Of a stretch of DNA of 64,000 nucleotides, positions 3,698 to 47,310 are shown piece after piece. Position 1 is the first letter of the stretch, and each line of letters opens with the position of its first letter. Under the pieces are notes generated by a model. The model saw nothing but the letters and a program-made list of their open reading frames with translations, searched no databases and was not told where the DNA came from. Origin of the DNA: Candidatus Pollutiaquabacter aromativorans (GTDB taxonomy: Bacteria; Bacteroidota; Bacteroidia; AKYH767-A; 2013-40CM-41-45); assembly GCA_049177215.1 (NCBI GenBank), contig CP185379.1, positions 1,192,150-1,256,149 of the forward strand, read 5' to 3'. The translations under genes were made by a program, and so were the position numbers.

Positions 3698-5102
3698 TCA
3701 CTTTCCGATACAGAACTTGGAAAAAATGTTTTCCAGGAGGTCATCGGTGCTGATTTCCCCGGTGATCTCGCCCAGGTGATGCAAGGCGACCCGCAGGTCA
3801 CTGGCGATAAAATCGTGCGTAACTCCGGAATCGAGACCGGCAAGTACCCTTTCAAGTGCAGCTTCCGTCTGCTGCAATGCAAGTGCATGCCGGGCGTTGC
3901 TGACGATCGTATCCCCGCTTTGCAAGCGCTCGGTGTCAACCGCCGACAACAAGCGATCTTCTAATGCAGAGAGTCCCGCTCCGGATTTTGCAGAAAGGAA
4001 AATGACTTCAGGATAGTTCTTGAACTCCTTTTCGAGCGCCTCGGGTTTGCTGCCGTCGGACTTGTTTCCGACAAGCAACAGACGGAACGTGTCACTGCCG
4101 GTTAGTTTTCGTAACGCTTCGAGTTCCAACTGCAGCGAGCCGGCAGTCGTTTCGGTAACGTCAAACAGGTAAAGCAGGAGCGGAGATTGCCGGATCTTGT
4201 CCAGCGTACGCTCCACACCGATCCGTTCGATCGTGTCGCTGGTATCCCGGATCCCTGCGGTATCGATGAAACGAAACCGTATTCCCTGGAGGCTGAGCTC
4301 TTCTTCGATCGTATCGCGGGTCGTTCCGGCTATGTCGCTGACGATGGCGCGTTCTTCCCGGAGCAGCGTATTGAGGAGTGTCGATTTACCGACATTCGGT
4401 TTACCCGGCGATCACGACCGGGATGCCATTCCGTAAGACATTGCCCAGTTCGAACGAGCGAATCAAGGCGTCCAATTGGCCACATAAACGCTTGACGAGA
4501 CCGCGCAATTGTTCGCGATTGGCGAACTCAACATCTTCTTCGGAAAAATCAAGTTCCAATTCAATCAGGGATGCAAAGTGGATGAGTTCGGCACGCAGGT
4601 CTTTGATCTTCCTGCTGAAACCTCCGCGCATCTGTTGCAAGGCCACGCGATGGGCAGCGGCCGAACCACTCGCGATGAGATCGGCGACCGCTTCGGCCTG
4701 CGACAGATCCAATTTTCCATTTAAAAAGGCGCGAAGCGTATACTCGCCCGGTTCAGCCAGCCGTGCCCCTTGCTGGCAAAGCGCCTGCAAGAGTTGTTGC
4801 TGGATGAAAGGTGAACCATGACAGGAAAATTCCAGGGTATCTTCACCCGTGTAGGAGTGAGGACCGCGAAAAACGGCAACGAGAACTTCGTCCAGGACCG
4901 CATCGTCGAAATGAAATTCACCGAAGTGCAGGCTATAGCCCGGTTGGTCCTGCAACGACTTTATTGACCGGGATTTTGCACGAAACACCCGGTCACCGAT
5001 GGTAAAAGCGGATTTCCCCGATAGCCGGATCACCGCAATGGCTCCGGTTCCGGGGGCTGTCGATAGCGCCGCAATGGTATCGTCTCGCTTGAAATTCAGC
5101 AT
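3698..5102 (-). pseudogene. mnmE: tRNA modification GTPase MnmE (TrmE), reading frame interrupted by an apparent +1 frameshift at about 4403-4406
   Basis: ORF 4401..5102 encodes the MnmE N-domain and ends ...VVIAG* exactly where the G1 P-loop (GKPNVGKST) should follow. The P-loop and the rest of the G-domain and C-terminus (...FCIGK) continue in another frame, with ORF 3698..4216 as the tail. An extra C in the run CCC at 4404-4406 (minus-strand GG to GGG) explains it. Confidence 0.75.
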
Positions 5103-5228
5103 GTTGAAAGGAGTGCAAATTTACCCATTCCGGTGGATTCATGGGGGCAAAACACTATTTTCGCGCTGGAATTGCGAGAAAAGTCAGACTTCTTCTTTAG
5201 CAACCTATAGCTTAGCAACCCTATTTCC

Positions 5229-6124: not shown

Positions 6125-6276
6125 TAATTAGTAATTAGTAATTCGGGAAAGTTGAAGCTGGAAGGTTGAAAGTTGAATGTTGAAAGTTGAAGGACAACTC
6201 TTCACTCTTCACTATTCACTCTTCACTATTCGCTATTCGCTATTCACTATTCACTATTCACTGTTCACTGTTCACT
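6125..6276. repeat. three adjacent heptamer tandem arrays in the sucD-fabG intergenic region: (TAATTAG)x2.5 at 6125-6143, (GTTGAAN)x5 at 6151-6193, (NTTCACT/TTCGCT)x11 at 6198-6276
   Basis: Read directly: taattagtaattagtaatt ... gttgaagctggaaggttgaaagttgaatgttgaaagttgaagg ... ctcttcact cttcact attcact cttcact attcgct attcgct attcact attcact attcact gttcact gttcact. The array ends 3 nt before the fabG ATG. Confidence 0.8.
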
Positions 6277-34707: not shown

Positions 34708-35512
34708 ATGAGTTCCCGTTCCCTGTTCGCCGGCCTGGCGCTGGCCGTAGTGCTGGTTTCCTGTAGCAAAGTACCCATCACCAAGCGCAAGCAGATGAAC
34801 CTGCTGCCGGAATCCCAGTTGGTTTCCCTGAGCCTGACCAATTATCAGGACTTCCTCAAGCAAAACCCGCCGGTCAAGGGCACCGCCGATGCGGCCCTGG
34901 TGCAGCGGGTCGGAACGAAGGTGGCCGACGCGGTCATCAAGTTCATGAACCAAAACAAGATGGGCGACCGGATCAAAGGCTATCAGTGGGAATTCAACCT
35001 CGTGAACAGTCCGGATGTCAATGCCTGGTGCATGCCGGGAGGTAAGGTGGTCGTGTATGCAGGCCTGTTGCCCGTTACGCAGGATGAGACCAGCCTGGCC
35101 ATTGTCATGGGACACGAGATCGCCCATGCGGTGGCACGACACGGCAACGAGCGCATGAGCCAGATGATGGTAGCGCAAGGGGATGGGCATGGCCCTGGAT
35201 GTGGCCCTTTCCCAGCAGCCGGCCCAGACCCGCAACATGTTCCTCACGGCCTACGGCGCGGGTTCGACCCTCGGCATCCTGGCCTATTCGCGTACCCACG
35301 AAACCGAAGCCGACAAGCTCGGACTCATCTTCGCCGCCATGGCCGGGTATGATCCGCGCCTGTCGGTCGCCTTTTGGGAGCGCATGAGCGCCAAGAGCAG
35401 CGGCAACAAACCGCCCGAATGGATGAGTACCCACCCCAGCGACGCGACCCGCATCAGCAACCTCAAAGCCTTCATGCCCACGGCTTTGAAATATTACAAA
35501 ACCGGCTCCTGA
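34708..35512 (+). pseudogene. M48-family zinc metallopeptidase lipoprotein (HExxH...E), interrupted by an apparent +1 frameshift in a G4 run at about 35179-35182
   Basis: ORF 34708..35352 carries HEIAHAVARHG and then runs out of frame after ...MSQMMVAQG. ORF 35183..35512 in the +1 frame carries the rest, including the third Zn ligand in HETEADKLGL. Removing one G of GGGG restores a single about 267-aa M48 protein. Confidence 0.7.
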
Positions 35513-35585: not shown

Positions 35586-35659
35586 GGACCCGTAGCTCAA
35601 CTGGATAGAGCATCTGACTACGGATCAGAAGGTTAGGGGTTCGACTCCCTTCGGGTCCG
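35586..35659 (+). tRNA. tRNA-Arg (anticodon ACG)
   Basis: Acceptor ggacccg/cgggtcc, D-arm tagctcaactggatagagca, anticodon stem tctga/tcaga with loop ctACGga, T-arm ggggttcgactccct. Confidence 0.85.
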
Positions 35660-36164
35660 CTACTGACACAATAGACCCTTGATTATCAAGATGATAGTCG
35701 AGGGTTTTTTGTTGGTGGACGCCTGTGTGGGCACTCTTTTGCTTTGCTTGCCTTTTCCAAGAACCTCTCGAGGGCGGATTTGCTTGTGCACAGCTCGTTA
35801 AGCTTTTTCAAAGTACGAACGCTTACAAACTTCTTCTAAAATATTGGGGTGTTAAGAATGCCTGGGTCGGTAGTATTCCTTAAATGAAACTTTCATCTGG
35901 ATAATTTATATTAGCAAGGCAATCTTTATGGTCGCGCCCTTTTGCTTGACAGCAAAGGTTCCTACTCAGATGCGAAACCATTTAACGGCATTCGCAATTT
36001 TCGCCATTGTGTCATATTACAATGGAATCTAAATGTTGTTATGATATAGCAGCTGGATTGTTTTAAAAACAGTTTCCGAAGAAGGCTTCTGATAATATAA
36101 CTCGAACTTTCTGTTACCCCTGGATGATTAATTAGGTATTTCCCAACTTCTAAATAAACTAGCT

Positions 36165-37748
36165 ATGCGAGTCTTGCTCTTTCAATGGTTTTTACTAATT
36201 ACAATACAGATTATTAATGCCACTTCTTCGATTGCTCAGCAGCAACAGGGGATAGAGTGGGCCGTGTCTTATGGAGGAGCTAGCATTGACGTAGGAAACT
36301 CTATTCAACTTACCAGCGATGGTGGTTATGTTGCAATTGGAAAGAGTCGTTCAAGTGATGGTGACATCACTGTAAATCACGGCAGGGAAGATTACTGGGT
36401 TGTAAAGATCTCGAGCGATGGGAGTATTCAATGGCAAAAGTCTTTTGGCGGATCATCAGAGGATAATGGAAGATTCGTCCAGGGCACCTCAGATGGAGGA
36501 TACATTTTGATTGGATTTACAATGTCTAATGATGGCGACGTAATTGGAAATCATGGTGGTTATGATTGTTGGGTTGTAAAGCTGGATAGCATAGGGGATA
36601 TTGAATGGCAGAGAGCTTTAGGAGGATCGGGCATGGATGCCGGTGTATCAATTATTCAAACTTCCGATGGAGGTTATGCCATGATTTCTGTGTCAGATTC
36701 TAATGATGGAGATGTATACGGGAACAATGGCCAAACAGACTTTTGGGTTGTGAAACTTTCAGAATTAGGTAACATTGAATGGCAAAAATCTTTAGGGGGG
36801 AGTAGTTCTGAAACGGCATCCTCTATTCAACAAACTGCTGATGGGGGATACATTGTATCGGGTCAGAGTAGTTCCAATGATGGCGATGTTACTGGAAACC
36901 ACGGGGACTCTGATTTTTGGATAGTTAAATTGTCGAGTTTCGGAGATATACAATGGCAGAATTCGTACGGAGGGGCAGCTTATGATCATGGTCTGTCGAT
37001 TCAAGAAACTGCAGATGGAGGGTATATAACATGTGGTTTTGTTGAATCAAATAATGGTAACGTGACTTTTAATCACGGAAGTCGTGATGTTTGGGTACTT
37101 AAGTTATCTAATAATGGTGATTTGGAATGGGAAAAGTCATTTGGAGGCACTGGGGATGATTGGGGGCATGAAATTCAAATCACTTCTGATGGCGGATATG
37201 TGATTCTCGGACACAGTAATTCTAATGATGGAGATGTATTTAATATTCATGGATCAAGGGATTATTGGGCGATAAAGTTGTCTAATTTTGGTGTATTGGA
37301 GTGGCAAAAGACCTTAGGTGGTTCAGAATCTGACATAGGGCATTCTATTCGGCAAACCCTTGACGGTGGGTTTATCCTAATTGGTGAAAGTCAATCAAAT
37401 GATGGCGATGTGACTGGAAATCATGGTGCTTCCGACTATTGGATTGTAAAGTTAAATGCAACAATTGGGTTGTCCGAGTTTTCTGACTTTGAATGGACAA
37501 TTGTTTCCCCAAATCCAGTAACTAGTAGATTAACCATTAAAGTATCACTTACAAATTCTGAAGATCTTCAAGTTTATATACGGGACTTGCTTGGTCATGT
37601 AGTTTTAGAACCAATAAAATTGAATAATGTCAGCGGATTGGTTGAACAATCAATATCAACAACTATGCTTTCCGACGGAATGTACTTGCTTGATATTGTT
37701 GGGCTAAAATGGAGAAAAACTAAGCGAATAATCATAGTTCAAAGATGA
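36165..37748 (+). CDS. T9SS cargo protein with eight tandem ~48-aa SBBP-type beta-propeller repeats and a type-A C-terminal sorting domain
   Basis: Signal peptide. Repeat (I/L)EWQKS.GGS..D.G.SI.QTSDGGY...G.S.SNDGDV.GNHG..D.WVVKL occurs 8 times. C-terminal SPNPVTSRLTIKV...GMYLLDIVGLKWRKTKRIIIVQR. Confidence 0.7.
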   Translation: MRVLLFQWFLLITIQIINATSSIAQQQQGIEWAVSYGGASIDVGNSIQLTSDGGYVAIGKSRSSDGDITVNHGREDYWVVKISSDGSIQWQKSFGGSSEDNGRFVQGTSDGGYILIGFTMSNDGDVIGNHGGYDCWVVKLDSIGDIEWQRALGGSGMDAGVSIIQTSDGGYAMISVSDSNDGDVYGNNGQTDFWVVKLSELGNIEWQKSLGGSSSETASSIQQTADGGYIVSGQSSSNDGDVTGNHGDSDFWIVKLSSFGDIQWQNSYGGAAYDHGLSIQETADGGYITCGFVESNNGNVTFNHGSRDVWVLKLSNNGDLEWEKSFGGTGDDWGHEIQITSDGGYVILGHSNSNDGDVFNIHGSRDYWAIKLSNFGVLEWQKTLGGSESDIGHSIRQTLDGGFILIGESQSNDGDVTGNHGASDYWIVKLNATIGLSEFSDFEWTIVSPNPVTSRLTIKVSLTNSEDLQVYIRDLLGHVVLEPIKLNNVSGLVEQSISTTMLSDGMYLLDIVGLKWRKTKRIIIVQR

Positions 37749-37798
37749 TGACTGTCCATACTACTAAGCCCGAATTAAAATAGTTACTATAAGTTGCC

Positions 37799-39250
37799 AT
37801 GTTCGAACAAACCTTCAAAAACATCGACGACATCCTCCACAAAGACGCCGGTTGCGGTAGCGAACTGGACTATGTGGAACAGACTTCATGGGTGTTGTTT
37901 CTAAAATACCTGGATGACCTGGAGAAAGACCGCGCCACGGCTGCTGAACTGACGGGTAAGACGTACACGCCCATCATCGACAAAAAGTACCAGTGGTCGG
38001 TCTGGGCGGCGCCCAAGGGTAAGGATGGCAAACTGGACCACCACAAGGCGATGACCGGTGACGACCTGACCGACTTCGTGAACGGCAAGCTGTTTCCCTA
38101 CCTGAAAAAGTTCAAGACGGATGCGGACAGCGCGGATACCATCGAATACAAGATTGGCGAAATCTTCAGCGAACTGAAAAACCGCCTGCAAAGCGGATAT
38201 AACCTGCGGGAGGTCATCAACCTCATTGACGAGTTGCGTTTCCGTACCCACGCAGAGAAGCACGAAATGAGCCACCTCTACGAGGAGAAGATCAAGAACA
38301 TGGGCAACGCCGGGCGCAACGGCGGCGAGTACTACACGCCGCGCCCGCTCATCACCACCATCGTGAAGGTGATTGACCCGAAGATTGGCGAGAAGATCTA
38401 CGACGGCGCCTGCGGCTCGGCAGGCTTCCTGTGCGAAGCTTTTGCCTACCTCAACAAGAAAGGGCTGTCCAGCAAGGATACAGTGACTCTCCAGAAGAAG
38501 ACCTTCTATGGCAAGGAAAAGAAATCGCTGGCCTACATCATCGGCATCATGAACATGATCCTGCACGGTGTGGAAGCCCCCAACATCATACACACCAATA
38601 CACTGGCCGAAAACCTCGCGGACATACAGGAAAAAGACCGCTACGATGTGGTGCTTGCCAATCCGCCTTTTGGTGGAAAGGAGCGTGCCGAAGTGCAACA
38701 AAACTTCCCGATTAAAACAGGCGAAACCGCTTCGCTCTTTTTACAGCACTTCATTAAAATATTGAAAGCAGGTGGCAAGGCAGGTGTGGTTATTAAAAAC
38801 ACTTTTTTGAGTAATACCGATAACGCCTCTGTCGCCATCCGAAAGACCTTGTTGGAGAGTTGTAACCTTCATACGGTGCTGGATTTGCCAGGTGGCACGT
38901 TTACAGGAGCTGGTGTAAAAACGGTAGTGCTGTTTTTTGAAAAAGGTAAGCCCACAAAGAAGGTATGGTATTATCAGCTGAACCTTGACCGTAATTTAGG
39001 TAAGACCAACCCGCTCAATGAAAAAGACTTGGCGGACTTCGTGCAGCTCCAAAAATCCTTCAAGGATAGCGAGAACTCTTGGACGATAAACGTAAAGGAC
39101 ATCGACCAGAGCACGTTTGACTTGAGCGTGAAGAATCCGAATAAAAAGCAGGAAGTTGCCTTGCGTCAACCGCAAGAAATTTTAGAGGAGATGAAGGCGC
39201 TGGATGAAGAGAGTGCGGAAATCTTTAATTCAATATTGGAGCTGTTATGA
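37799..39250 (+). CDS. hsdM: Type I restriction-modification system, DNA methyltransferase subunit M
   Basis: HsdM N-terminal domain (WVLFLKYLDDLEK), SAM motif I (DGACGSAGFL) and catalytic NPPFGG (VLANPPFGGKE). 483 aa. Stop overlaps the hsdS start (ATGA). Confidence 0.9.
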   Translation: MFEQTFKNIDDILHKDAGCGSELDYVEQTSWVLFLKYLDDLEKDRATAAELTGKTYTPIIDKKYQWSVWAAPKGKDGKLDHHKAMTGDDLTDFVNGKLFPYLKKFKTDADSADTIEYKIGEIFSELKNRLQSGYNLREVINLIDELRFRTHAEKHEMSHLYEEKIKNMGNAGRNGGEYYTPRPLITTIVKVIDPKIGEKIYDGACGSAGFLCEAFAYLNKKGLSSKDTVTLQKKTFYGKEKKSLAYIIGIMNMILHGVEAPNIIHTNTLAENLADIQEKDRYDVVLANPPFGGKERAEVQQNFPIKTGETASLFLQHFIKILKAGGKAGVVIKNTFLSNTDNASVAIRKTLLESCNLHTVLDLPGGTFTGAGVKTVVLFFEKGKPTKKVWYYQLNLDRNLGKTNPLNEKDLADFVQLQKSFKDSENSWTINVKDIDQSTFDLSVKNPNKKQEVALRQPQEILEEMKALDEESAEIFNSILELL

Positions 39251-39732
39251 AGCAGGGTTGGGAAATAAAGAAGTTGGGAGAGATTGTTGATATTGTTAAT
39301 GGAAGGAATCAATCTTCAGTGCTCTCTGAAAATGGACCATATCCTATTTACGGAAGTGCTGGTAATTTGATGGGCTATTCAACGGAGTATTTGTGTGATA
39401 AAGGCACCACTATAATCGGAAGAAAGGGGAATATCTCTACCCCAATCTTCATTGATGAAAGATTTTGGAACGTAGATACTGCCTTTGGATTATTCCCCAA
39501 AAATGGAAGCATCCCCAAGTTTATTTATTATTTATGTCTTACCATTGATTTCAAAAGTCGAAACAGGGGTACAACTATTCCGAGTTTAGTCAAATCAGAC
39601 TTATTGACCATTGATGTCCCATTTGTTAAGTCCCTCCCCGAACAACAACGCATTGTTTCCATATTAGACGAGTGCTTTGCCGCCATAGCCAAGGCAAAAG
39701 CCAATGCCGAAGAAGAACCTCAAAAACGCTAA
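39247..39732 (+). CDS. hsdS: Type I R-M specificity subunit S, N-terminal target-recognition-domain half (ends in the central conserved region)
   Basis: MKQGWEIKKLGEIVDIVNG... is a typical HsdS start. It ends ...ILDECFAAIAKAKANAEEEPQKR* inside the central conserved spacer. Confidence 0.75.
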   Translation: MKQGWEIKKLGEIVDIVNGRNQSSVLSENGPYPIYGSAGNLMGYSTEYLCDKGTTIIGRKGNISTPIFIDERFWNVDTAFGLFPKNGSIPKFIYYLCLTIDFKSRNRGTTIPSLVKSDLLTIDVPFVKSLPEQQRIVSILDECFAAIAKAKANAEEEPQKR

Positions 39733-40348
39733 GGAACTTTTTGAGAGTTATTTGCAGGGGGTGTTTGAGAATGGGGATTGGGACACGAAAACCATTGAAC
39801 TGGTATGTGATGAAATATTTGCAGGTGGTGATGCGCCCCAAAACAATTTTTCATTGGAGTCCAATAAAAAACATAATATTCCTATATACGCAAATGCTGT
39901 AAAAGATAGAGGTCTGTACGGCTATACTGACTTTGCAAGAGTTAACAAGCCTTGTGTGACAATAGCAGCAAGGGGGAGTGGTACAGGGCACACGGAATTA
40001 AGGAATGAACCATTTTTGCCTATTGTAAGGCTCATTGTATGTATTCCAAACTGCAAAATAATCACAGCCGAATTCCTCAAATACACGATAGATAATTTAG
40101 TGATTCAGCGCAGCGGTAGTGCGATTCCACAACTAACTGTTCCGATGATAAAGGACTATATTATACCAGTTCCACTTATTGAAGAGCAAAAACAGATTAT
40201 TGAAAAGGCAGAAGCACTTAAAGAACAAAAAGCAAGACTCGAAAATGTATATCAAAAGAAGTTGGAAGACTTGGAGGAGTTGAAGAAGGCCATCCTTCAA
40301 AAGGCATTTGCTGGGGAGTTGAAAACAGGAAAACCGGTTGCGGCATGA
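39704..40348 (+). CDS. hsdS: Type I R-M specificity subunit S, C-terminal target-recognition-domain half (different frame, overlaps previous ORF by 29 nt)
   Basis: Continues the conserved central/C-terminal regions (NLKNAKELFESYLQ ... EEQKQIIEKAEALKEQKARLENVYQKKLEDLEELKKAILQKAF). Together the two ORFs make a normal two-TRD HsdS. Confidence 0.7.
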   Translation: MPKKNLKNAKELFESYLQGVFENGDWDTKTIELVCDEIFAGGDAPQNNFSLESNKKHNIPIYANAVKDRGLYGYTDFARVNKPCVTIAARGSGTGHTELRNEPFLPIVRLIVCIPNCKIITAEFLKYTIDNLVIQRSGSAIPQLTVPMIKDYIIPVPLIEEQKQIIEKAEALKEQKARLENVYQKKLEDLEELKKAILQKAFAGELKTGKPVAA

Positions 40349-41235
40349 GTTGGAACGAAAAAAGCATGTTAAATGAGCCATCCGGAGAATGGGGTGGTCC
40401 CTGGACTGAAAAAAAGCTTGAAGCTTTTTCAAAATATGTGTGGTCTTACCTAACCATTATGAAGAAGTTCCCTTTTTGGAAAACCATCTACTTTGATGGC
40501 TTTGCGGGAAGCGGAACAAGGGATAAGCGGGCGAATGCTCATTTGATGCAACAACTAAAAATCACAGACGAAGAAGAAGAAACTTATAAAGGTGCTGCCG
40601 AAAGGGTTTTAGGTTTGCAAGAATTGGGGTTTGACTTTTACTATTTTATTGACAAAAACGACACTTCGCTGAATAAATTGAAAACAAAACTGGGTGATAG
40701 ATTTAAAGATAAAACGATTGTTTACCGGTCAGGAGATGCGAACGTTCAAATAGCCGAGCTTGCAAAAGCCTTGCGAACCAAAGATTACGCAGCATTGGTT
40801 TTTCTTGACCCTTTCGGCATGCAAATAGATTGGAATTCCATAGAAGAATTAAAAGATACACGTTCTGATGTATGGATTTTAGTTCCAACGGGCGTTATTG
40901 TAAATCGTCTATTGGACAGAGCAGGAAAATTGGAGTTTAGCGATAAACTCCAATCATTTTTCGGCTTGCCAATTGAAGAAATCAAAACACATTTCTACGA
41001 AGAAAAAAAAGTGCAGACACTTTTCGGAGTAGAAGAAATCATCACAAAGGTTTCTCGACCTATTGAGAAAATTTCAAGTTTGTATGCCGAACGAATGAAA
41101 ACTATCTGGAAGCACGTTACGGATGAACCACTAGTATTGAAGAACCGAAACGGCTCACCTATATTTCATTTCGTATTTGCATCAAATAATCAGAATGCAA
41201 AAAAGATTGCTAAACAAATTATTCATAACATTTAA
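40345..41235 (+). CDS. TcmP-like (three-Cys-motif partner protein) family protein; unknown function
   Basis: 296 aa. N-terminal W..KKLEAF.KYV..Y, glycine-rich YFDGFAGSG and VFLDPFG motifs as remembered for the TcmP family (TIGR04474). Start overlaps the hsdS stop by 4 nt and it is followed 3 nt later by a Gp37/Gp68 gene. Family assignment is from memory, not a search. Confidence 0.55.
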   Translation: MSWNEKSMLNEPSGEWGGPWTEKKLEAFSKYVWSYLTIMKKFPFWKTIYFDGFAGSGTRDKRANAHLMQQLKITDEEEETYKGAAERVLGLQELGFDFYYFIDKNDTSLNKLKTKLGDRFKDKTIVYRSGDANVQIAELAKALRTKDYAALVFLDPFGMQIDWNSIEELKDTRSDVWILVPTGVIVNRLLDRAGKLEFSDKLQSFFGLPIEEIKTHFYEEKKVQTLFGVEEIITKVSRPIEKISSLYAERMKTIWKHVTDEPLVLKNRNGSPIFHFVFASNNQNAKKIAKQIIHNI

Positions 41236-41238
41236 CCT

Positions 41239-41964
41239 ATGGCACAATCAAGTATAGAATGGACTGAAATGACTTGGAATCCAACAACGGGTTGCGATAA
41301 AATTTCGGCAGGTTGCAAATTCTGTTATGCGGAAGTAATGGCAAGGCGATTAAAAGCAATGGGCGTTGAAAAATATGCCAATGGCTTTGAGTTGGCTATT
41401 CACGAAGATGAATTGCAAACACCTTACACTTGGAAAAAATCGAAAATGGTATTTGTAAATTCAATGAGCGACTTATTTCATAAAGACGTGCCCGTTGAAT
41501 TTATTCAAAAGGTATTCAGAGTAATGAAAGAAAATCCGCAACACGTTTTTCAAATTTTGACCAAACGGGCTGATTTGCTTTTATATTATGATAAAGAAGG
41601 ATTGTTGGAATGGGCGCACAACATCTGGATGGGTGTTTCGGTAGAAAGCGAAAAAGTGATGAACCGGATTGACCTTTTGCGTCAAACCAATGCAAGAGTA
41701 AAATTTTTAAGTTGCGAGCCGTTAATAAGCCCTCTGCCAAATTTGAATTTAAAAGGCATTGATTGGGTAATAGTAGGCGGTGAAAGCGGAAGAACGCCAA
41801 GACCCATGAAAAAGGAATGGGTAATGGAAATTAAAGAACAATGTAGGAAAAAAGATGTAGCGTTTTTCTTTAAGCAATGGGGCGGAACGAACAAAAAGAA
41901 AACAGGCAATCTGCTTAACGGCAAAAAATATTTAGAAATGCCAGAAATAGTTGAATCGAAATGA
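41239..41964 (+). CDS. phage protein Gp37/Gp68 family (DUF5131), three-Cys-motif radical-SAM-like protein
   Basis: IEWTEMTWNPTTGCDKISAGCKFCYAE carries the family-defining N-terminal Cys triad (C-x6-C-x2-C). 241 aa. Stop overlaps the hsdR start (ATGA). Confidence 0.75.
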   Translation: MAQSSIEWTEMTWNPTTGCDKISAGCKFCYAEVMARRLKAMGVEKYANGFELAIHEDELQTPYTWKKSKMVFVNSMSDLFHKDVPVEFIQKVFRVMKENPQHVFQILTKRADLLLYYDKEGLLEWAHNIWMGVSVESEKVMNRIDLLRQTNARVKFLSCEPLISPLPNLNLKGIDWVIVGGESGRTPRPMKKEWVMEIKEQCRKKDVAFFFKQWGGTNKKKTGNLLNGKKYLEMPEIVESK

Positions 41965-44312
41965 ACGAGGCAGAAACACGCGCTGAACTAATCGACCCCA
42001 AGCTCAAGGCTTGCGGCTGGGGCGTGGTGGAAGGCTCCAAAATCCTGCGAGAGTATAAAATCACCGCGGGGAGGATTCAGGCTGGCGGAAGAGGCAAGCG
42101 TGATATTGCAGATTATGTGCTGGTCTATAAAGGCATCAAGCTGGCGGTAGTGGAAGCGAAAAGCGCTTCGGTGGAAGTGGGTGAGGGTGTGATGCAAGCC
42201 AAGAAGTACGCGGAGAAACTGCAAACCGGCACCACGTACAGCACCAACGGGAAGGAAATCTACCAGATTTGCATGGAGACCGGCGCTGAGGGCTTGGTGC
42301 CGGAGTTCCTCAGCCCCGACCAGCTATGGAACAAGACTTTTTCGCCGGCCGGTGCCGAACCGATAGCTACCGCCCAATGGCGCGAGCGATTCACCAATGT
42401 TCCTTTTGAAGACAAAGGAGGCAGCTGGCAGCTTCGCTACTATCAGGAAATCGCCGTGCAACGCGCCATTGAGGCCATTGCACAAAACAAAAACCGAATC
42501 CTGCTCACCCTTGCCACGGGAACAGGCAAAACGGCTATCGCCTTCCAAATCGCCTGGAAGCTATACCAAACCCGCTGGAACCTGAGACGGGATGGCAGCC
42601 GCAGACCGCGCATCCTGTTCCTGGCCGACCGCAACATCCTCGCCGATCAGGCCTACAACGCCTTTTCGGCGTTTCCGGAAGATGCGCTGGTGCGCATTAA
42701 GCCGAATGAGATTAGGAAAAAGGGCAAAGTGCCGACCAATGGCAGCGTCTTCTTCACCATCTTCCAGACCTTCATGAGCGGGCAGGATGCAGCGGGTAAG
42801 CCCACCCCATATTTCGGAGAGTACCCACCGGACTACTTCGATTTCATCATCATTGACGAGTGCCACCGCGGCGGAGCAAACGATGAAAGCAACTGGCGCG
42901 GGATTCTGGAGTATTTCAGTCCGGCGGTACAGTTGGGTCTGACCGCAACCCCCAAGCGACAGGACAACGTGGATACGTATGCTTACTTCGGCGAACCGGT
43001 GTACGTGTATTCGCTCAAAGAGGGCATCAACGACGGCTTCCTCACCCCGTTCAAAGTAAAACGCATCCAGACGACCCTCGACGACTACCGCTATACGTCC
43101 GACGATACCGTGGTAGAGGGCGAAATCGAGGAGGGTAAATTGTACGAGGAGAAGGACTTCAACCGCACCATTGAGATCGTGGAACGGGAGGCCAAGCGGG
43201 TGAATGTGTTTCTTTCAGAGGCAAACCAACACGAAAAAGCAATAATCTTCTGTGCTAACCAAGGGCACGCCGCCTTGATACGGGATTTAGTAAATCAGCA
43301 CGCTAAGCACAAAGACCCCTTTTACTGCGTACGAGTGACTGCCAATGACGGGGAGGAAGGGGAGCGCCTGCTGCGGGAGTTTCAGGACAATGAAAAGACG
43401 TTGCCGACGATTCTGACCACCTCGCAAAAACTCTCCACCGGGGTTGATGCACGGAACATTCGAAACATCGTCCTGCTGCGCCCCGTCAACTCGATGATCG
43501 AGTTCAAGCAAATCGTCGGCCGGGGTACCCGCCTGTTCGATGGGAAGGAGTTTTTCACCATCTACGATTTTGTCGATGCCTACCGCCACTTTTCCGATCC
43601 CGAATGGGATGGGGAACCGGAGGGCGAAGTGGACAAGGTCGTCAGCGATCACGGTCAAGAGAAATACGATCCAAGAGCTCCCCGTGAGCCTGAGGAAGCA
43701 GGAGATCCCAAGGAACCTCGGCGGAAAGTAAAGGTTAAGCTACGAGACGGTAAAGCGCGGGAGATACAGCACATGGTGTCCACCTCGTTTTGGAGTGCGG
43801 ACGGAAGGCCGATCTCTGCACAAGAATTCCTGAGCAATCTGTTCGGAGAACTGCCGAAACTTTTCAAAGACGAAGAGGAACTGCGAAAGCTGTGGAGCAA
43901 TCCATTGACCCGCCGTACGCTGCTTGAAAAGCTGGAAGAGGCCGGTTTCCCCAAGGCAGACCTGCTCACCTTGCAGCAGTTGGTCGATATGGAAAAGAGC
44001 GACCTGTATGATGTGTTGGAATATGTTTTCAATGGCGACTATATCGCCATGACAAGAGAAGCCAGAGCCAAAGCAGCCGAAGCGACCATTTTTGCCCTGC
44101 TCAACGACAAGCAAAAGGAGTTCATTGCATTTGTGCTCAGTAAATACATTGAAACCGGCGTGGATGAGCTTGACCAGGATAAGCTGCCTATCCTGTTGAC
44201 GAACAAATATCAGTCACTGGAAGACGCTAAAGCGGTCTTGGGGGATGTGGCGAATATCAGTCGGTTGTTTGTGGAGTTTCAGGAGCATCTTTATAAGCAG
44301 CGGGTTGCGTAA
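41961..44312 (+). CDS. hsdR: Type I restriction enzyme R subunit (EcoEI-like, 783 aa)
   Basis: HsdR_N PD-(D/E)xK domain (DIADYVLVYKGIKLAVVEAK), SF2 helicase motifs (LATGTGKT, DECHRG, later motifs) and an EcoEI-R-type C-terminal domain. Confidence 0.9.
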   Translation: MNEAETRAELIDPKLKACGWGVVEGSKILREYKITAGRIQAGGRGKRDIADYVLVYKGIKLAVVEAKSASVEVGEGVMQAKKYAEKLQTGTTYSTNGKEIYQICMETGAEGLVPEFLSPDQLWNKTFSPAGAEPIATAQWRERFTNVPFEDKGGSWQLRYYQEIAVQRAIEAIAQNKNRILLTLATGTGKTAIAFQIAWKLYQTRWNLRRDGSRRPRILFLADRNILADQAYNAFSAFPEDALVRIKPNEIRKKGKVPTNGSVFFTIFQTFMSGQDAAGKPTPYFGEYPPDYFDFIIIDECHRGGANDESNWRGILEYFSPAVQLGLTATPKRQDNVDTYAYFGEPVYVYSLKEGINDGFLTPFKVKRIQTTLDDYRYTSDDTVVEGEIEEGKLYEEKDFNRTIEIVEREAKRVNVFLSEANQHEKAIIFCANQGHAALIRDLVNQHAKHKDPFYCVRVTANDGEEGERLLREFQDNEKTLPTILTTSQKLSTGVDARNIRNIVLLRPVNSMIEFKQIVGRGTRLFDGKEFFTIYDFVDAYRHFSDPEWDGEPEGEVDKVVSDHGQEKYDPRAPREPEEAGDPKEPRRKVKVKLRDGKAREIQHMVSTSFWSADGRPISAQEFLSNLFGELPKLFKDEEELRKLWSNPLTRRTLLEKLEEAGFPKADLLTLQQLVDMEKSDLYDVLEYVFNGDYIAMTREARAKAAEATIFALLNDKQKEFIAFVLSKYIETGVDELDQDKLPILLTNKYQSLEDAKAVLGDVANISRLFVEFQEHLYKQRVA

Positions 44313-44362
44313 TTAGGTAATTAAAATTCTCAGTTATTTAACCATATTGCTCAGTCTGGCTA

Positions 44363-45118
44363 ATGAAAAATCTTACAGTAAGTAGTTTCGACGAAATAAT
44401 TAATATATTGACTAACGATAAATATGGTTGTGGCCATGTTGTTTATCGTGGAGTTTCTGATTCTAAGAAACATGACTTAAGACCGTCTGTTGGAAGGATA
44501 GATCCCTCATTGTTAAAGGGCAAAGATCTTCAAGAGTTGGAGCGTGAGATGCTAACCCGTTTTAAATTGAGAGCAAACTTTGAAATTAGTCCGCAACCTA
44601 AGGATGATTGGGAGTGGTTGGCTTTAGCTCAACATCACGGCCTGCCAACAAGACTTCTTGACTGGACATTTAGTCCATTAATTGCAATCTACTTTGCATG
44701 TAAACCCATTCTCAATGACAATGGTTTATTTGATAGTTCTAACAGTGACGCAAGAGCTGTTTACGCACTACATACATGTTCGTACCTAGACACCAGTTGC
44801 TTAGATCCATTTTCAGTTAGTGAATGCTGCTTATTTTACCCCCCTCACATCACAAAGCGTATATCTGGTCAGTTTGGTCTATTCTCTGTTCAGCCAGACC
44901 CCATGACAGCATTCGATTCTCAGTTAGAGGAGTCGGATGAAAACTGGGTAGATAAGATTGAAATTCCACTGGACCTAGCTATTGAAGCTCAAAAGAAGCT
45001 GTTTCTTTTGGGAATAAGGCATGAAACTATTTTTCCAGATTTGGAAGGCTACACATATGACCTAAGAGTAAAGTTCAATATTGCTTCATGTCATACTTTG
45101 AAAAATCTTTGCTTGTAG
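44363..45118 (+). CDS. FRG-domain protein
   Basis: VVYRGVSDSKKHDLRPSVGR and WEWLALAQHHGLPTRLLDWTFSPLIAIYFA match the FRG-domain signature. 251 aa. Confidence 0.65.
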   Translation: MKNLTVSSFDEIINILTNDKYGCGHVVYRGVSDSKKHDLRPSVGRIDPSLLKGKDLQELEREMLTRFKLRANFEISPQPKDDWEWLALAQHHGLPTRLLDWTFSPLIAIYFACKPILNDNGLFDSSNSDARAVYALHTCSYLDTSCLDPFSVSECCLFYPPHITKRISGQFGLFSVQPDPMTAFDSQLEESDENWVDKIEIPLDLAIEAQKKLFLLGIRHETIFPDLEGYTYDLRVKFNIASCHTLKNLCL

Positions 45119-45277
45119 TGTCCTTTTAAAGGCCCAATTGGTTCTCCGACATGATGAATTTCACAAATGGGCGCAGCAGATTCTAATTTAACTCGGTGAA
45201 TTGGCAGGAAAATATTTGGGCTAAACTCTTTGGGTATTTATAAAAACTATATATTAGTCATCAAACCTAACGTCTTT

Positions 45278-46990
45278 ATGAAAACTAAAGTTCTACTTTC
45301 CTTGCTGATTTGTATCAGCATCTCGGTGTCGGCATTATCTCAAGCAACCCCCTCTTATGTGCCAACCAACGGATTGGTCGGCTGGTGGCCTTTTAATGGG
45401 AATGCAGATGATGCGAGTGGGAATGGGAATAACGGGACATTTTCTAACGGCAGTTATGTGCCTAGTATATGGGACATGGCCGCTGAATTTAATGGTAATA
45501 GTTCACTGATAACTATACCAAGCAGCAGTAGCTTTGATACTGATTCATTTACCTTTTCTTTAAGAGTGAATTTGTCTTCACACTTAGGGCACAATGAAAT
45601 TCAGTTTGGTATTCCAGGTGATTCGCTGAGATGGTCTATTGGTTGGGATCCTAATCAGTTATATCTATTACCGATGACCTGTGCAGGAACTTATGGGACA
45701 GGGCAAAATTATCCTCAAGTACCTATAAATGTCGGAACCTGGTATCATATGGTGTTTGTTAATCATGGAATTTATACTGATTATTATTTGGATGGGGTGT
45801 TTTTGGGAACATCCGATATGACAACCCCTTTGAATTGTTGGAGCCCCAGTATGAACCTATACCTGGGCGGAGACATTGGCGGGGGGGCCATCGAGTATTT
45901 TGCTGGTCTAATGGATGAATGCGGATTTTGGAACCGTGCCCTCACCCAACAGGAAATCACAAATCTTTATAATGCCACAACTTCTCCTCCTTGCAACCCG
46001 CTGCCAATTAATTTAATGAATGGACTTGTGGGCTACTGGCCTTTTTGTGGGAATGCGAATGATGAGTCAGGTAATGGAAACAATGGAACCGTAAATGGAG
46101 CAACCATGGCGGCTGATAGGTTTAGCAATGCAGGTAATGCGTTTTCATGGAACACTTCTCCGGATAAAATAGTGGTGCCTAATAGCAATAGCCTACAACT
46201 TACTTCAGCTTTCTCGGTTGGTCTCTGGTTGAAGCCAATTAATAATACTTACGGAACCGGCCCCAATTATCATGCAATAGTAGAGAAGTGGGGGGCAGCT
46301 AACGACGCATCTTATCTATTTGAGCTATTTACTAATGGTATCCCAGCATTCCGAACTCATAATTCTGGAAGTGATGCGGTGATTCAAGCAAGACAAGCGG
46401 TTCCTTTTGATGTTTGGACACACCTTCTTTATACTCAAAATGCAGATACCGGGAGACTATATGTGAATGGCCTTTTGGATACTGTTGTAATGGGAATGAT
46501 AACCCCCATGGTTATGAATAATGACCTGCTATTTGGAAGTAATGATGCTTACAATGTTGGTTCTTCCGGGGATGCATACGAAGGATTAATAGATGATATC
46601 GGTATTTGGAATCGGGTGCTCAGCCAGTCTGAAGTCAACCAAGTATATAACCAAAATATCTGCTTTCAAACCATCACCGTTACCGACACCCTGCTTATCA
46701 ATGTAAATATAACTAACCTGAATCCGGTCACTTATCAGAATACAATCAAGGTCTTCCCGAATCCGACCAATGACCATATCACGGTCGACTTCGGGCCGAA
46801 CTACGCGTCGTTGACGGGTTACAGCTTGCGCATCGACAACACCCTTGGACAGACGATGTTTACCTCCCCTGTGCAGCAGCAATCTGCCTATATCGACCTA
46901 AACACCTGGACAGGTGTGGGGGTCTATTTTGTCTATCTACTGGACGCTCAGGGCCATACCGTGGATGTGAGGAAAATTGTATTGCAGTAG
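45278..46990 (+). CDS. T9SS cargo protein with two LamG/concanavalin-A-like lectin domains and a type-A C-terminal sorting domain
   Basis: Signal peptide MKTKVLLSLLICISISVSALSQA. Duplicated LVGWWPFNGNADDASGNGNNGT / LVGYWPFCGNANDESGNGNNGT LamG hallmarks. C-terminal IKVFPNPTNDHITVDF...GVYFVYLLDAQGHTVDVRKIVLQ. Confidence 0.7.
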   Translation: MKTKVLLSLLICISISVSALSQATPSYVPTNGLVGWWPFNGNADDASGNGNNGTFSNGSYVPSIWDMAAEFNGNSSLITIPSSSSFDTDSFTFSLRVNLSSHLGHNEIQFGIPGDSLRWSIGWDPNQLYLLPMTCAGTYGTGQNYPQVPINVGTWYHMVFVNHGIYTDYYLDGVFLGTSDMTTPLNCWSPSMNLYLGGDIGGGAIEYFAGLMDECGFWNRALTQQEITNLYNATTSPPCNPLPINLMNGLVGYWPFCGNANDESGNGNNGTVNGATMAADRFSNAGNAFSWNTSPDKIVVPNSNSLQLTSAFSVGLWLKPINNTYGTGPNYHAIVEKWGAANDASYLFELFTNGIPAFRTHNSGSDAVIQARQAVPFDVWTHLLYTQNADTGRLYVNGLLDTVVMGMITPMVMNNDLLFGSNDAYNVGSSGDAYEGLIDDIGIWNRVLSQSEVNQVYNQNICFQTITVTDTLLINVNITNLNPVTYQNTIKVFPNPTNDHITVDFGPNYASLTGYSLRIDNTLGQTMFTSPVQQQSAYIDLNTWTGVGVYFVYLLDAQGHTVDVRKIVLQ

Positions 46991-47011
46991 ACGGAGATAA
47001 AAGGTTGGAGG

Positions 47012-47048
47012 TAAGGGGGCTTGCTTGGGTGAAGCCCCCTTTTTTATT
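47012..47048 (+). terminator. rho-independent terminator after the LamG cargo gene
   Basis: agggggctt-gcttgggtg-aagccccct hairpin followed by TTTTTTAT. Confidence 0.6.
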
Positions 47049-47310
47049 GCCCCTTGTATGATTACAATTAGGGCTGTTCTAAACAAGCTTAAACATAACC
47101 TCCGGAATTTCAGCCTTTGAGGGCCATAAAAACCTTCTTTGCCTAAGATCCATATCATCCTAGATTTCCGGGAATTTATAGGCCGATACCTGTGAAGCAA
47201 GTCAAGTTCGTTGCAACAGCCTTGTCTTCCAACGCGCTTTGGGTATTCAAAAGAGCCTCGAAAAACCCCCGAAATCACTATCTTTACGGCCATTCTAAAG
47301 GAGACGAACA

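Follow-up and report, generated by a model that had tools for sequence, protein, structure and literature searches.

The hsdS gene of a type I R-M system in Candidatus Pollutiaquabacter aromativorans reads as two overlapping ORFs in the analyzed 64,000-nucleotide stretch of DNA (hereafter the window), and the single surplus base that divides it is probably a consensus error of the source assembly, as judged by comparison with other assemblies of the species. In the organism itself, hsdS is most likely intact and encodes a normal two-TRD, 366-aa subunit of a type IB system. The source assembly appears to be a single-contig, 3.72-Mb MAG (3,719,830 bp), presumably built from long reads. Since the extra base is absent from five out of five other assemblies, and since the same assembly carries at least two more unique +1 insertions, in the mnmE and M48 peptidase genes, an artefact is favored; thus, among the alternatives raised in the preliminary description, it is the sequencing error that gains from the comparison. 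We infer that the hsdS insertion results from the same process as those in mnmE and the M48 peptidase gene, and that the assembly was built from long reads of a strain mixture. Under the proposed mechanism, reads of co-existing strains with different synonymous alleles would be merged into one consensus, and neighboring SNPs would upset the read alignment, so that both SNP alleles would be retained in adjacent columns, one base would be added, and the reading frame would shift.

The split gene belongs to a compact operon on the plus strand, which comprises hsdM, the two parts of hsdS, tcmP, a DUF5131 gene, hsdR, and an FRG-domain gene (37799-45118). The first gene, hsdM (37799..39250, plus strand), encodes a 483-aa type I N6-adenine methyltransferase (PF02384 and PF12161; PADLOC MTase_I, 546 bits). 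At its stop, it shares 4 nt with the start of hsdS, and overlaps of the same length are found at the hsdS/tcmP and DUF5131/hsdR junctions. The N-terminal hsdS ORF (39247..39732, plus strand; 161 aa, annotated as XQP85242.1) encodes TRD1 and the first half of the central conserved helix, followed by five out-of-frame codons and a stop; its last residues are ...AKANAEEEPQKR (or, in a longer stretch, ...AIAKAKANAEEEPQKR), directly before the stop. The C-terminal ORF (39704..40348, plus strand; 214 aa, P0022, annotated as XQP85243.1) lies in the +1 frame, starts with the ATG at 39704 and the residues MPKKNLKNAKELFESYLQGVFENG, shares 29 nt with the N-terminal ORF, and encodes the remainder of the central helix together with TRD2 and the conserved helix at the C-terminus. 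Each half ORF contains one Methylase_S domain (PF01420, TRD), and the window puts the two domains in different frames. The ORFs and the PF01420 matches thus bear out the preliminary description of an hsdS gene that is split at the central conserved region into two overlapping ORFs, the second of which starts from an internal ATG 29 nt before the stop of the first and in another frame.

The remaining components of the system point to its type. The hsdR gene (41961..44312, plus strand; 783 aa) encodes a protein of the EcoAI/FtnUII family that matches NF046051 (restrict_EcoAI) over its full length with 797 bits, as compared with a cutoff of 550. Because HsdR scores above the EcoAI/FtnUII equivalog cutoff, the system was typed as an EcoAI-type (type IB) R-M system. 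As in EcoAI and type IB systems, HsdM has the N6_Mtase and HsdM_N domains and is encoded next to hsdS, and HsdS, once repaired, has a central conserved helix that joins its two TRDs and a further conserved helix at its C-terminus. The repaired ORF and its intact orthologue P0121, each of 366 aa, align to the solved HsdS structures 5YBB and 3OKG across both helices. Unlike in EcoAI and type IB systems, the gene order in the window is hsdM-hsdS-[tcmP-DUF5131]-hsdR, with two defense-candidate genes as cargo.

The lesion in hsdS is one surplus base in GCC GA[A]G AAG AAC on the plus strand, at 39710..39712 (39707-39710 in the list of window-unique indels), where A39710, A39711, or G39712 is in excess and the window has GA[A]G versus GAG in the five other assemblies. 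The window string at 39709-39718, extra base included, is GAAGAAGAAC; GAAGAAGAA occupies 39709-39717, and a run of five adenines (A5) occupies 39722-39726. The shift of frame falls midway along the central conserved helix, between TRD1 and TRD2. Deletion of a single base anywhere in 39700-39730 joins both ORFs into 366 aa; however, a deletion within 39710-39712, and no other, yields ...ANAEKNLKNAKELF..., the same as in P0121, from which the resulting 366-aa product differs by R134Q and A138S only. The junction in full-length homologues reads ...AKANAE(Q/K)NLKNAKELFESYLQGVFENG..., while a deletion in the A5 run yields AEEEPQNAKELF, which brings four extra mismatches, one of them a proline in the coiled-coil helix. 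The conserved frame already includes the codons CTC AAA AAC (L-K-N), which hold the A5 run, and this run does not change in any of the six sequences, i.e., in the window and the five intact orthologues. The A5 run, whose deletion gives the poorer protein, is thereby excluded as the shift site. Slippage of the (GAA)3 tract is excluded as the cause as well: its unit is a trinucleotide, therefore one-unit slippage cannot alter the frame, and the intact alleles read GAGAAGAAC at this position, which is not a perfect repeat. The frameshift, which had been placed at the A5/(GAA)3 tract, is accordingly relocated to 39710-39712, outside A5. The accompanying proposal, that removal of one A from the A5 run or of one base from the tract restores a normal HsdS, is correct as regards the fusion into 366 aa; a normal sequence, however, is regained by deletion at 39710-39712 and not by deletion in the A5 run.

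Comparison with orthologues, which had been suggested as a check, revealed the intact 366-aa HsdS, P0121, on five contigs (L001-L005) that stem from separate samples and pipelines. These contigs come from one ENA MEGAHIT assembly, one JGI metagenome, and three Logan assemblies, all of them short-read and independent. The same gene order is found on all five: a 2018-aa protein, ClpS, the M48 peptidase, a 527-aa T9SS protein, hsdM, hsdS, tcmP, DUF5131, hsdR, and FRG. In both TRDs, the DNA of the window and that of the five contigs are 100% identical, and at the junction the contigs read GCC AAT GCG GAG AAG AAC CTG AAA AAT GCT AAG GAG, one base fewer than the window. The five assemblies are identical at this site, without variation in tract length. 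A 90% cluster look-up in approximately 15 billion proteins found no half-size hsdS copies apart from the two records of the MAG itself; the cluster of each half ORF consists of the MAG's own record and one full-length HsdS (P0121, P0123). In the contig index, neither the two half ORFs nor P0022 had an exact protein match. A degenerate, variable-gap junction pattern, which matches the window and the five contigs, had 0 matches in the collections of genome and metagenome contigs, which evidently do not hold these contigs. In addition, P0123, encoded on a Logan contig of 2633 nt, is a 419-aa HsdS with the same TRD1 as in the window (the first 133 residues are identical) and an unrelated TRD2; from its sequence, it is a predicted natural TRD swap with the breakpoint in the central conserved region.

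The hsdS insertion is one of three in the window. We compared the window with 25 independent loci, i.e., the five hsdS loci and 20 more around three other window genes, which cover positions 1-62693 (62.7 kb) at a depth of 3-10 and an identity of 97-99.7%. Exactly three indels separate the window from every covering locus; each is a +1 in the window, and each breaks a gene that is intact in the other loci, namely mnmE (10 out of 10 loci, 467 aa), the M48 peptidase gene (8 out of 8, 267 aa), and hsdS (5 out of 5). A codon-usage log-odds score that had been trained on the long ORFs of the window failed to tell genes from antisense ORFs, and split genes were therefore detected through Pfam domain continuity and by comparing the window with other assemblies. 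A frequency of one indel per approximately 20 kb is the look of an insufficiently polished long-read MAG.

The insertion in mnmE (4403..4407, minus strand) divides the gene into the ORFs 4401-5120 and 3698-4411 and falls inside the G1/P-loop, between VIAG and KPNVGKST. According to Pfam, one of these ORFs has TrmE_N and positions 1-95 of the helical domain, and the next one has the GTPase domain and positions 89-211 of the helical domain. At this site, eight loci read GCG GGT AAA and two loci GCC GGG AAA, while the window reads GCC GGG T AAA, that is, GGG T AAA versus GGT AAA or GGG AAA in the population. These tandem alleles had been foretold (GGG and/or GGT in the population) before the data were retrieved, and were then confirmed. 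The mnmE split is probably an assembly error, and an annotation would wrongly show two genes or a pseudogene at this site. The insertion in the M48 peptidase gene (35177..35183, plus strand; ORFs 34708-35352 and 35183-35512) has the same form: the window reads CA A G GGG, and the population has CAG GGG (seven loci) or CAA GGG (one locus). The chance that a random single-base insertion in the covered region matches a known SNP together with its alternative allele is approximately 1.8% per site, and a collapsed consensus of mixed strains would give side-by-side alleles such as those at mnmE and the M48 gene. In hsdS, as in the M48 gene, the extra base falls on a third-codon position at which the change is synonymous. 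The hsdS site reads GA[A][G]; GAG is the form of the population, and the patch of the window around the site favors GAA elsewhere, but the A allele (GAA) occurs in no other assembly. The tandem pattern in hsdS is consistent with mixed alleles, and any insertion beside a different base would read in this way.

All three insertion sites are located in SNP-dense stretches, and each coincides with a haplotype switch or lies within approximately 50 nt of one. The window is nearly identical to L009, one of the compared loci, on the left side of 4403, with 1 difference in 500 nt, and diverges from it on the right side, with 17 differences; the M48 site is 40-60 nt away from the point where the window changes between L001-like and L002-like sequence. 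A different kind of deviation is found at window position 6240: in the intergenic region that precedes the short-chain dehydrogenase gene on its upstream side, the window lacks a 7-nt sequence (CTATTCA) that 8 out of 10 other assemblies contain. It has been described that nearby allelic variants in a collapsed long-read assembly cause wrong read alignments, INDEL errors, and truncated ORFs (Cosentino et al., 2021; PMC8445201). The case described here resembles that one in its one-base indels at clustered allelic variants, which cut ORFs that the true haplotypes keep intact and are unique to one assembly. The earlier case, however, was a diploid eukaryote, whereas here the haplotypes would be those of co-existing bacterial strains in a metagenome, as deduced from the comparison of assemblies.

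The surroundings of the hsdS insertion are themselves mosaic. Within the central conserved region (39647..39736, plus strand), the window differs from the five intact alleles by nine substitutions and the indel, while the flanking TRDs are 100% identical, and it switches every few bases between the allele of the species and the common allele of the R-M family. Neither this haplotype nor its intact form was found in any other assembly compared. A 29-nt string from the central region, GAACAACAACGCATTGTTTCCATATTAGA (window 39640-39668), occurs exactly in 30 contigs (L026-L055) from several phyla, Bacteroidota among them; the contigs come from Flavobacteriales, Chitinophagaceae, Pedobacter, Balneolaceae, Ignavibacteriales, and the betaproteobacterium Formosimonas. 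All 30 belong to other taxa and are in frame at the junction, mostly with GCC GAA CAA AAC. Most of them carry hsdM and hsdR, whose products are 70-90% identical to those of the window; HsdM, where present, is 70-91% identical. The TRDs of the window were not found among these 30 contigs, which supplied no donor and no intact copy of the window haplotype. Judging by these matches, the R-M family appears to be very widely transferred. Conserved central-region DNA can attract cross-mapped reads; it is near-identical across many taxa, and therefore mixed pile-ups are especially likely at this position. Natural recombination, a mixed pile-up, or the two combined would be expected to give a mosaic this fine. 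An origin of the patch in one gene-conversion tract derived from the common family allele is excluded by the alternation of alleles every few bases. On a larger scale, the window at positions 38231-44102 departs from the five contigs only in short patches, located in hsdM, the central region of hsdS, tcmP, DUF5131, and hsdR, where mainly third-codon positions are changed; these patches are separated by 600-1000 nt at 100% identity, with both TRDs included in the identical parts. Such patchy divergence reflects either a recombination mosaic or a multi-strain consensus.

The operon also holds candidate defense genes and is part of a variable island. Between hsdS and hsdR (40345-41964), tcmP (40345..41235, plus strand) encodes a three-Cys-motif partner protein (TIGR04474; PADLOC candidate PDC-M41A), and the adjacent DUF5131 gene (41239..41964, plus strand) encodes a Gp37/Gp68-like protein (PF07505; PADLOC candidate PDC-M41B/M30B). 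The pair, which overlaps hsdS and hsdR by 4 nt each, is considered a candidate defense pair by its PADLOC matches. It is present in all five same-species loci but in only one out of 30 related type IB loci (L041), thus the gap between hsdS and hsdR looks like a variable cargo slot. The FRG-domain protein encoded directly 3' of hsdR (44363..45118, plus strand; PADLOC candidate PDC-S15) is a possible additional defense component of this island. In another genome of the species (GCA_016713765.1), a block that corresponds to approximately 35600-47250 of the window is missing; it spans the genes for the 527-aa T9SS protein, hsdM, hsdS, tcmP, DUF5131, hsdR, and FRG, up to that for a 586-aa Laminin_G/T9SS protein. 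Where the block would lie, between the M48 peptidase and phosphoglucomutase genes, this genome encodes just one 1196-aa T9SS protein; the island is therefore strain-variable.

Two rival readings invoke slippage or recoding. One of them holds that A5 or (GAA)3 is a repeat prone to slippage, through which the R-M system would phase-vary in specificity or activity as an NgoAV-like phasevarion. Indeed, SSR tracts of phase-variable hsdS genes are located between the two TRDs (PMC7383803; PMC9577141), and in NgoAV of Neisseria gonorrhoeae the hsdS1/hsdS2 split occurs at a variable poly-G tract (PMC9577141). As in NgoAV, hsdS of the window forms two ORFs through a frameshift between TRD1 and TRD2, and the removal of one base fuses them into a two-TRD HsdS. 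Unlike in NgoAV, where a long poly-G tract varies among isolates and the truncated product has demonstrated activity, there is no qualifying tract here, no strain variation, and no second case of the split. The published criteria for phase-variable type I genes are at least nine mononucleotide, five dinucleotide, or three tetranucleotide-or-longer units, with units in multiples of three excluded (PMC7383803), and both A5 and (GAA)3 fail them in length or unit. Moreover, A5 is not the shift site and is shared by all six sequences, and the intact alleles, with GAGAAGAAC, have no repeat and vary in length in none of the five independent assemblies. The suggestion of a slippage-prone tract that phase-varies the system is thus largely refuted, and we regard it as highly improbable. 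The other reading, programmed +1 ribosomal frameshifting or transcriptional slippage that restores full-length HsdS, has in its favor the 29-nt overlap of the two frames and nothing further. The orthologous alleles encode HsdS in one frame, hence there is no conserved recoding signal, and the shift site lacks a slow codon, a stop codon, and a homopolymer long enough for slippage of RNA polymerase, which makes recoding scarcely conceivable.

A real, recent, and strain-specific frameshift, by which hsdS is inactivated and the R-M system switched off, or by which both halves are made, is unlikely in our view, although it deserves more weight than the two readings above. R-M specificity genes are often truly inactivated in nature, and the prior for a real lesion is therefore higher than in mnmE. 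Engineered or natural half-size HsdS proteins, such as the truncations of EcoDXXI and EcoR124I, which consist of one TRD and part of the central region, can dimerize and then recognize a symmetric site. The R-M island is strain-variable, being absent from GCA_016713765.1, and selection on it may be weak; the central-region haplotype of the window is unique; and the in-frame ATG of the C-terminal half at 39704 overlaps the stop of the N-terminal half, which makes translational coupling conceivable. If real, the N-terminal half would comprise TRD1 and approximately 25 residues of the central helix, and the C-terminal half would comprise the rest of the helix, TRD2, and the C-terminal helix. If both were made, the two halves, parted in the middle of the central coiled-coil helix, could reassemble non-covalently, or the N-terminal half could homodimerize and recognize a palindromic target; a functional split HsdS of this kind is a doubtful prospect, to be given little credence. 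NgoAV works with a naturally truncated HsdS, its hsdS1/hsdS2 being split between the TRDs (PMC9577141), so the earlier remark that a half-size HsdS can function holds for other systems; here, however, the half-size ORF recurs in no other assembly, and the remark is relevant only if the base is real. The same applies to the comparison with the half-size HsdS of EcoDXXI and EcoR124I, and the N-terminal half here retains only about half of the central helix. Furthermore, the split is missing from five out of five other assemblies and half-size copies occur nowhere else in the protein collection, and the TRDs are without decay and 100% identical to those of the intact alleles. The same assembly has equally unique +1 insertions in the mnmE P-loop and the M48 peptidase gene, each with a mixed-allele signature, and it is implausible that three genuine frameshifts, including one in mnmE, would fall within 62.7 kb of the 3.7-Mb genome of a free-living organism.

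Were the frameshift real, it would represent one more strain-specific inactivation or truncation of hsdS, a known phenomenon; were the split functional as well, it would be a natural split HsdS that had arisen without a repeat tract, at the point of TRD-swapping recombination. With the consensus error as the preferred explanation, the case is rather one for caution, as frameshifts in single-contig MAGs of strain-mixed communities can mimic phase-variable or split R-M genes, and the extra base in hsdS falls exactly where real phase-variable hsdS genes hold their repeat tracts. A cheap and transferable check is to consult independent assemblies of the same species and then to compare the extra base and its neighbor with the two alleles of a population SNP. 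The underlying feature in Candidatus Pollutiaquabacter aromativorans is best explained as a type IB R-M system that is intact and ordinary and that resides on a strain-variable island.
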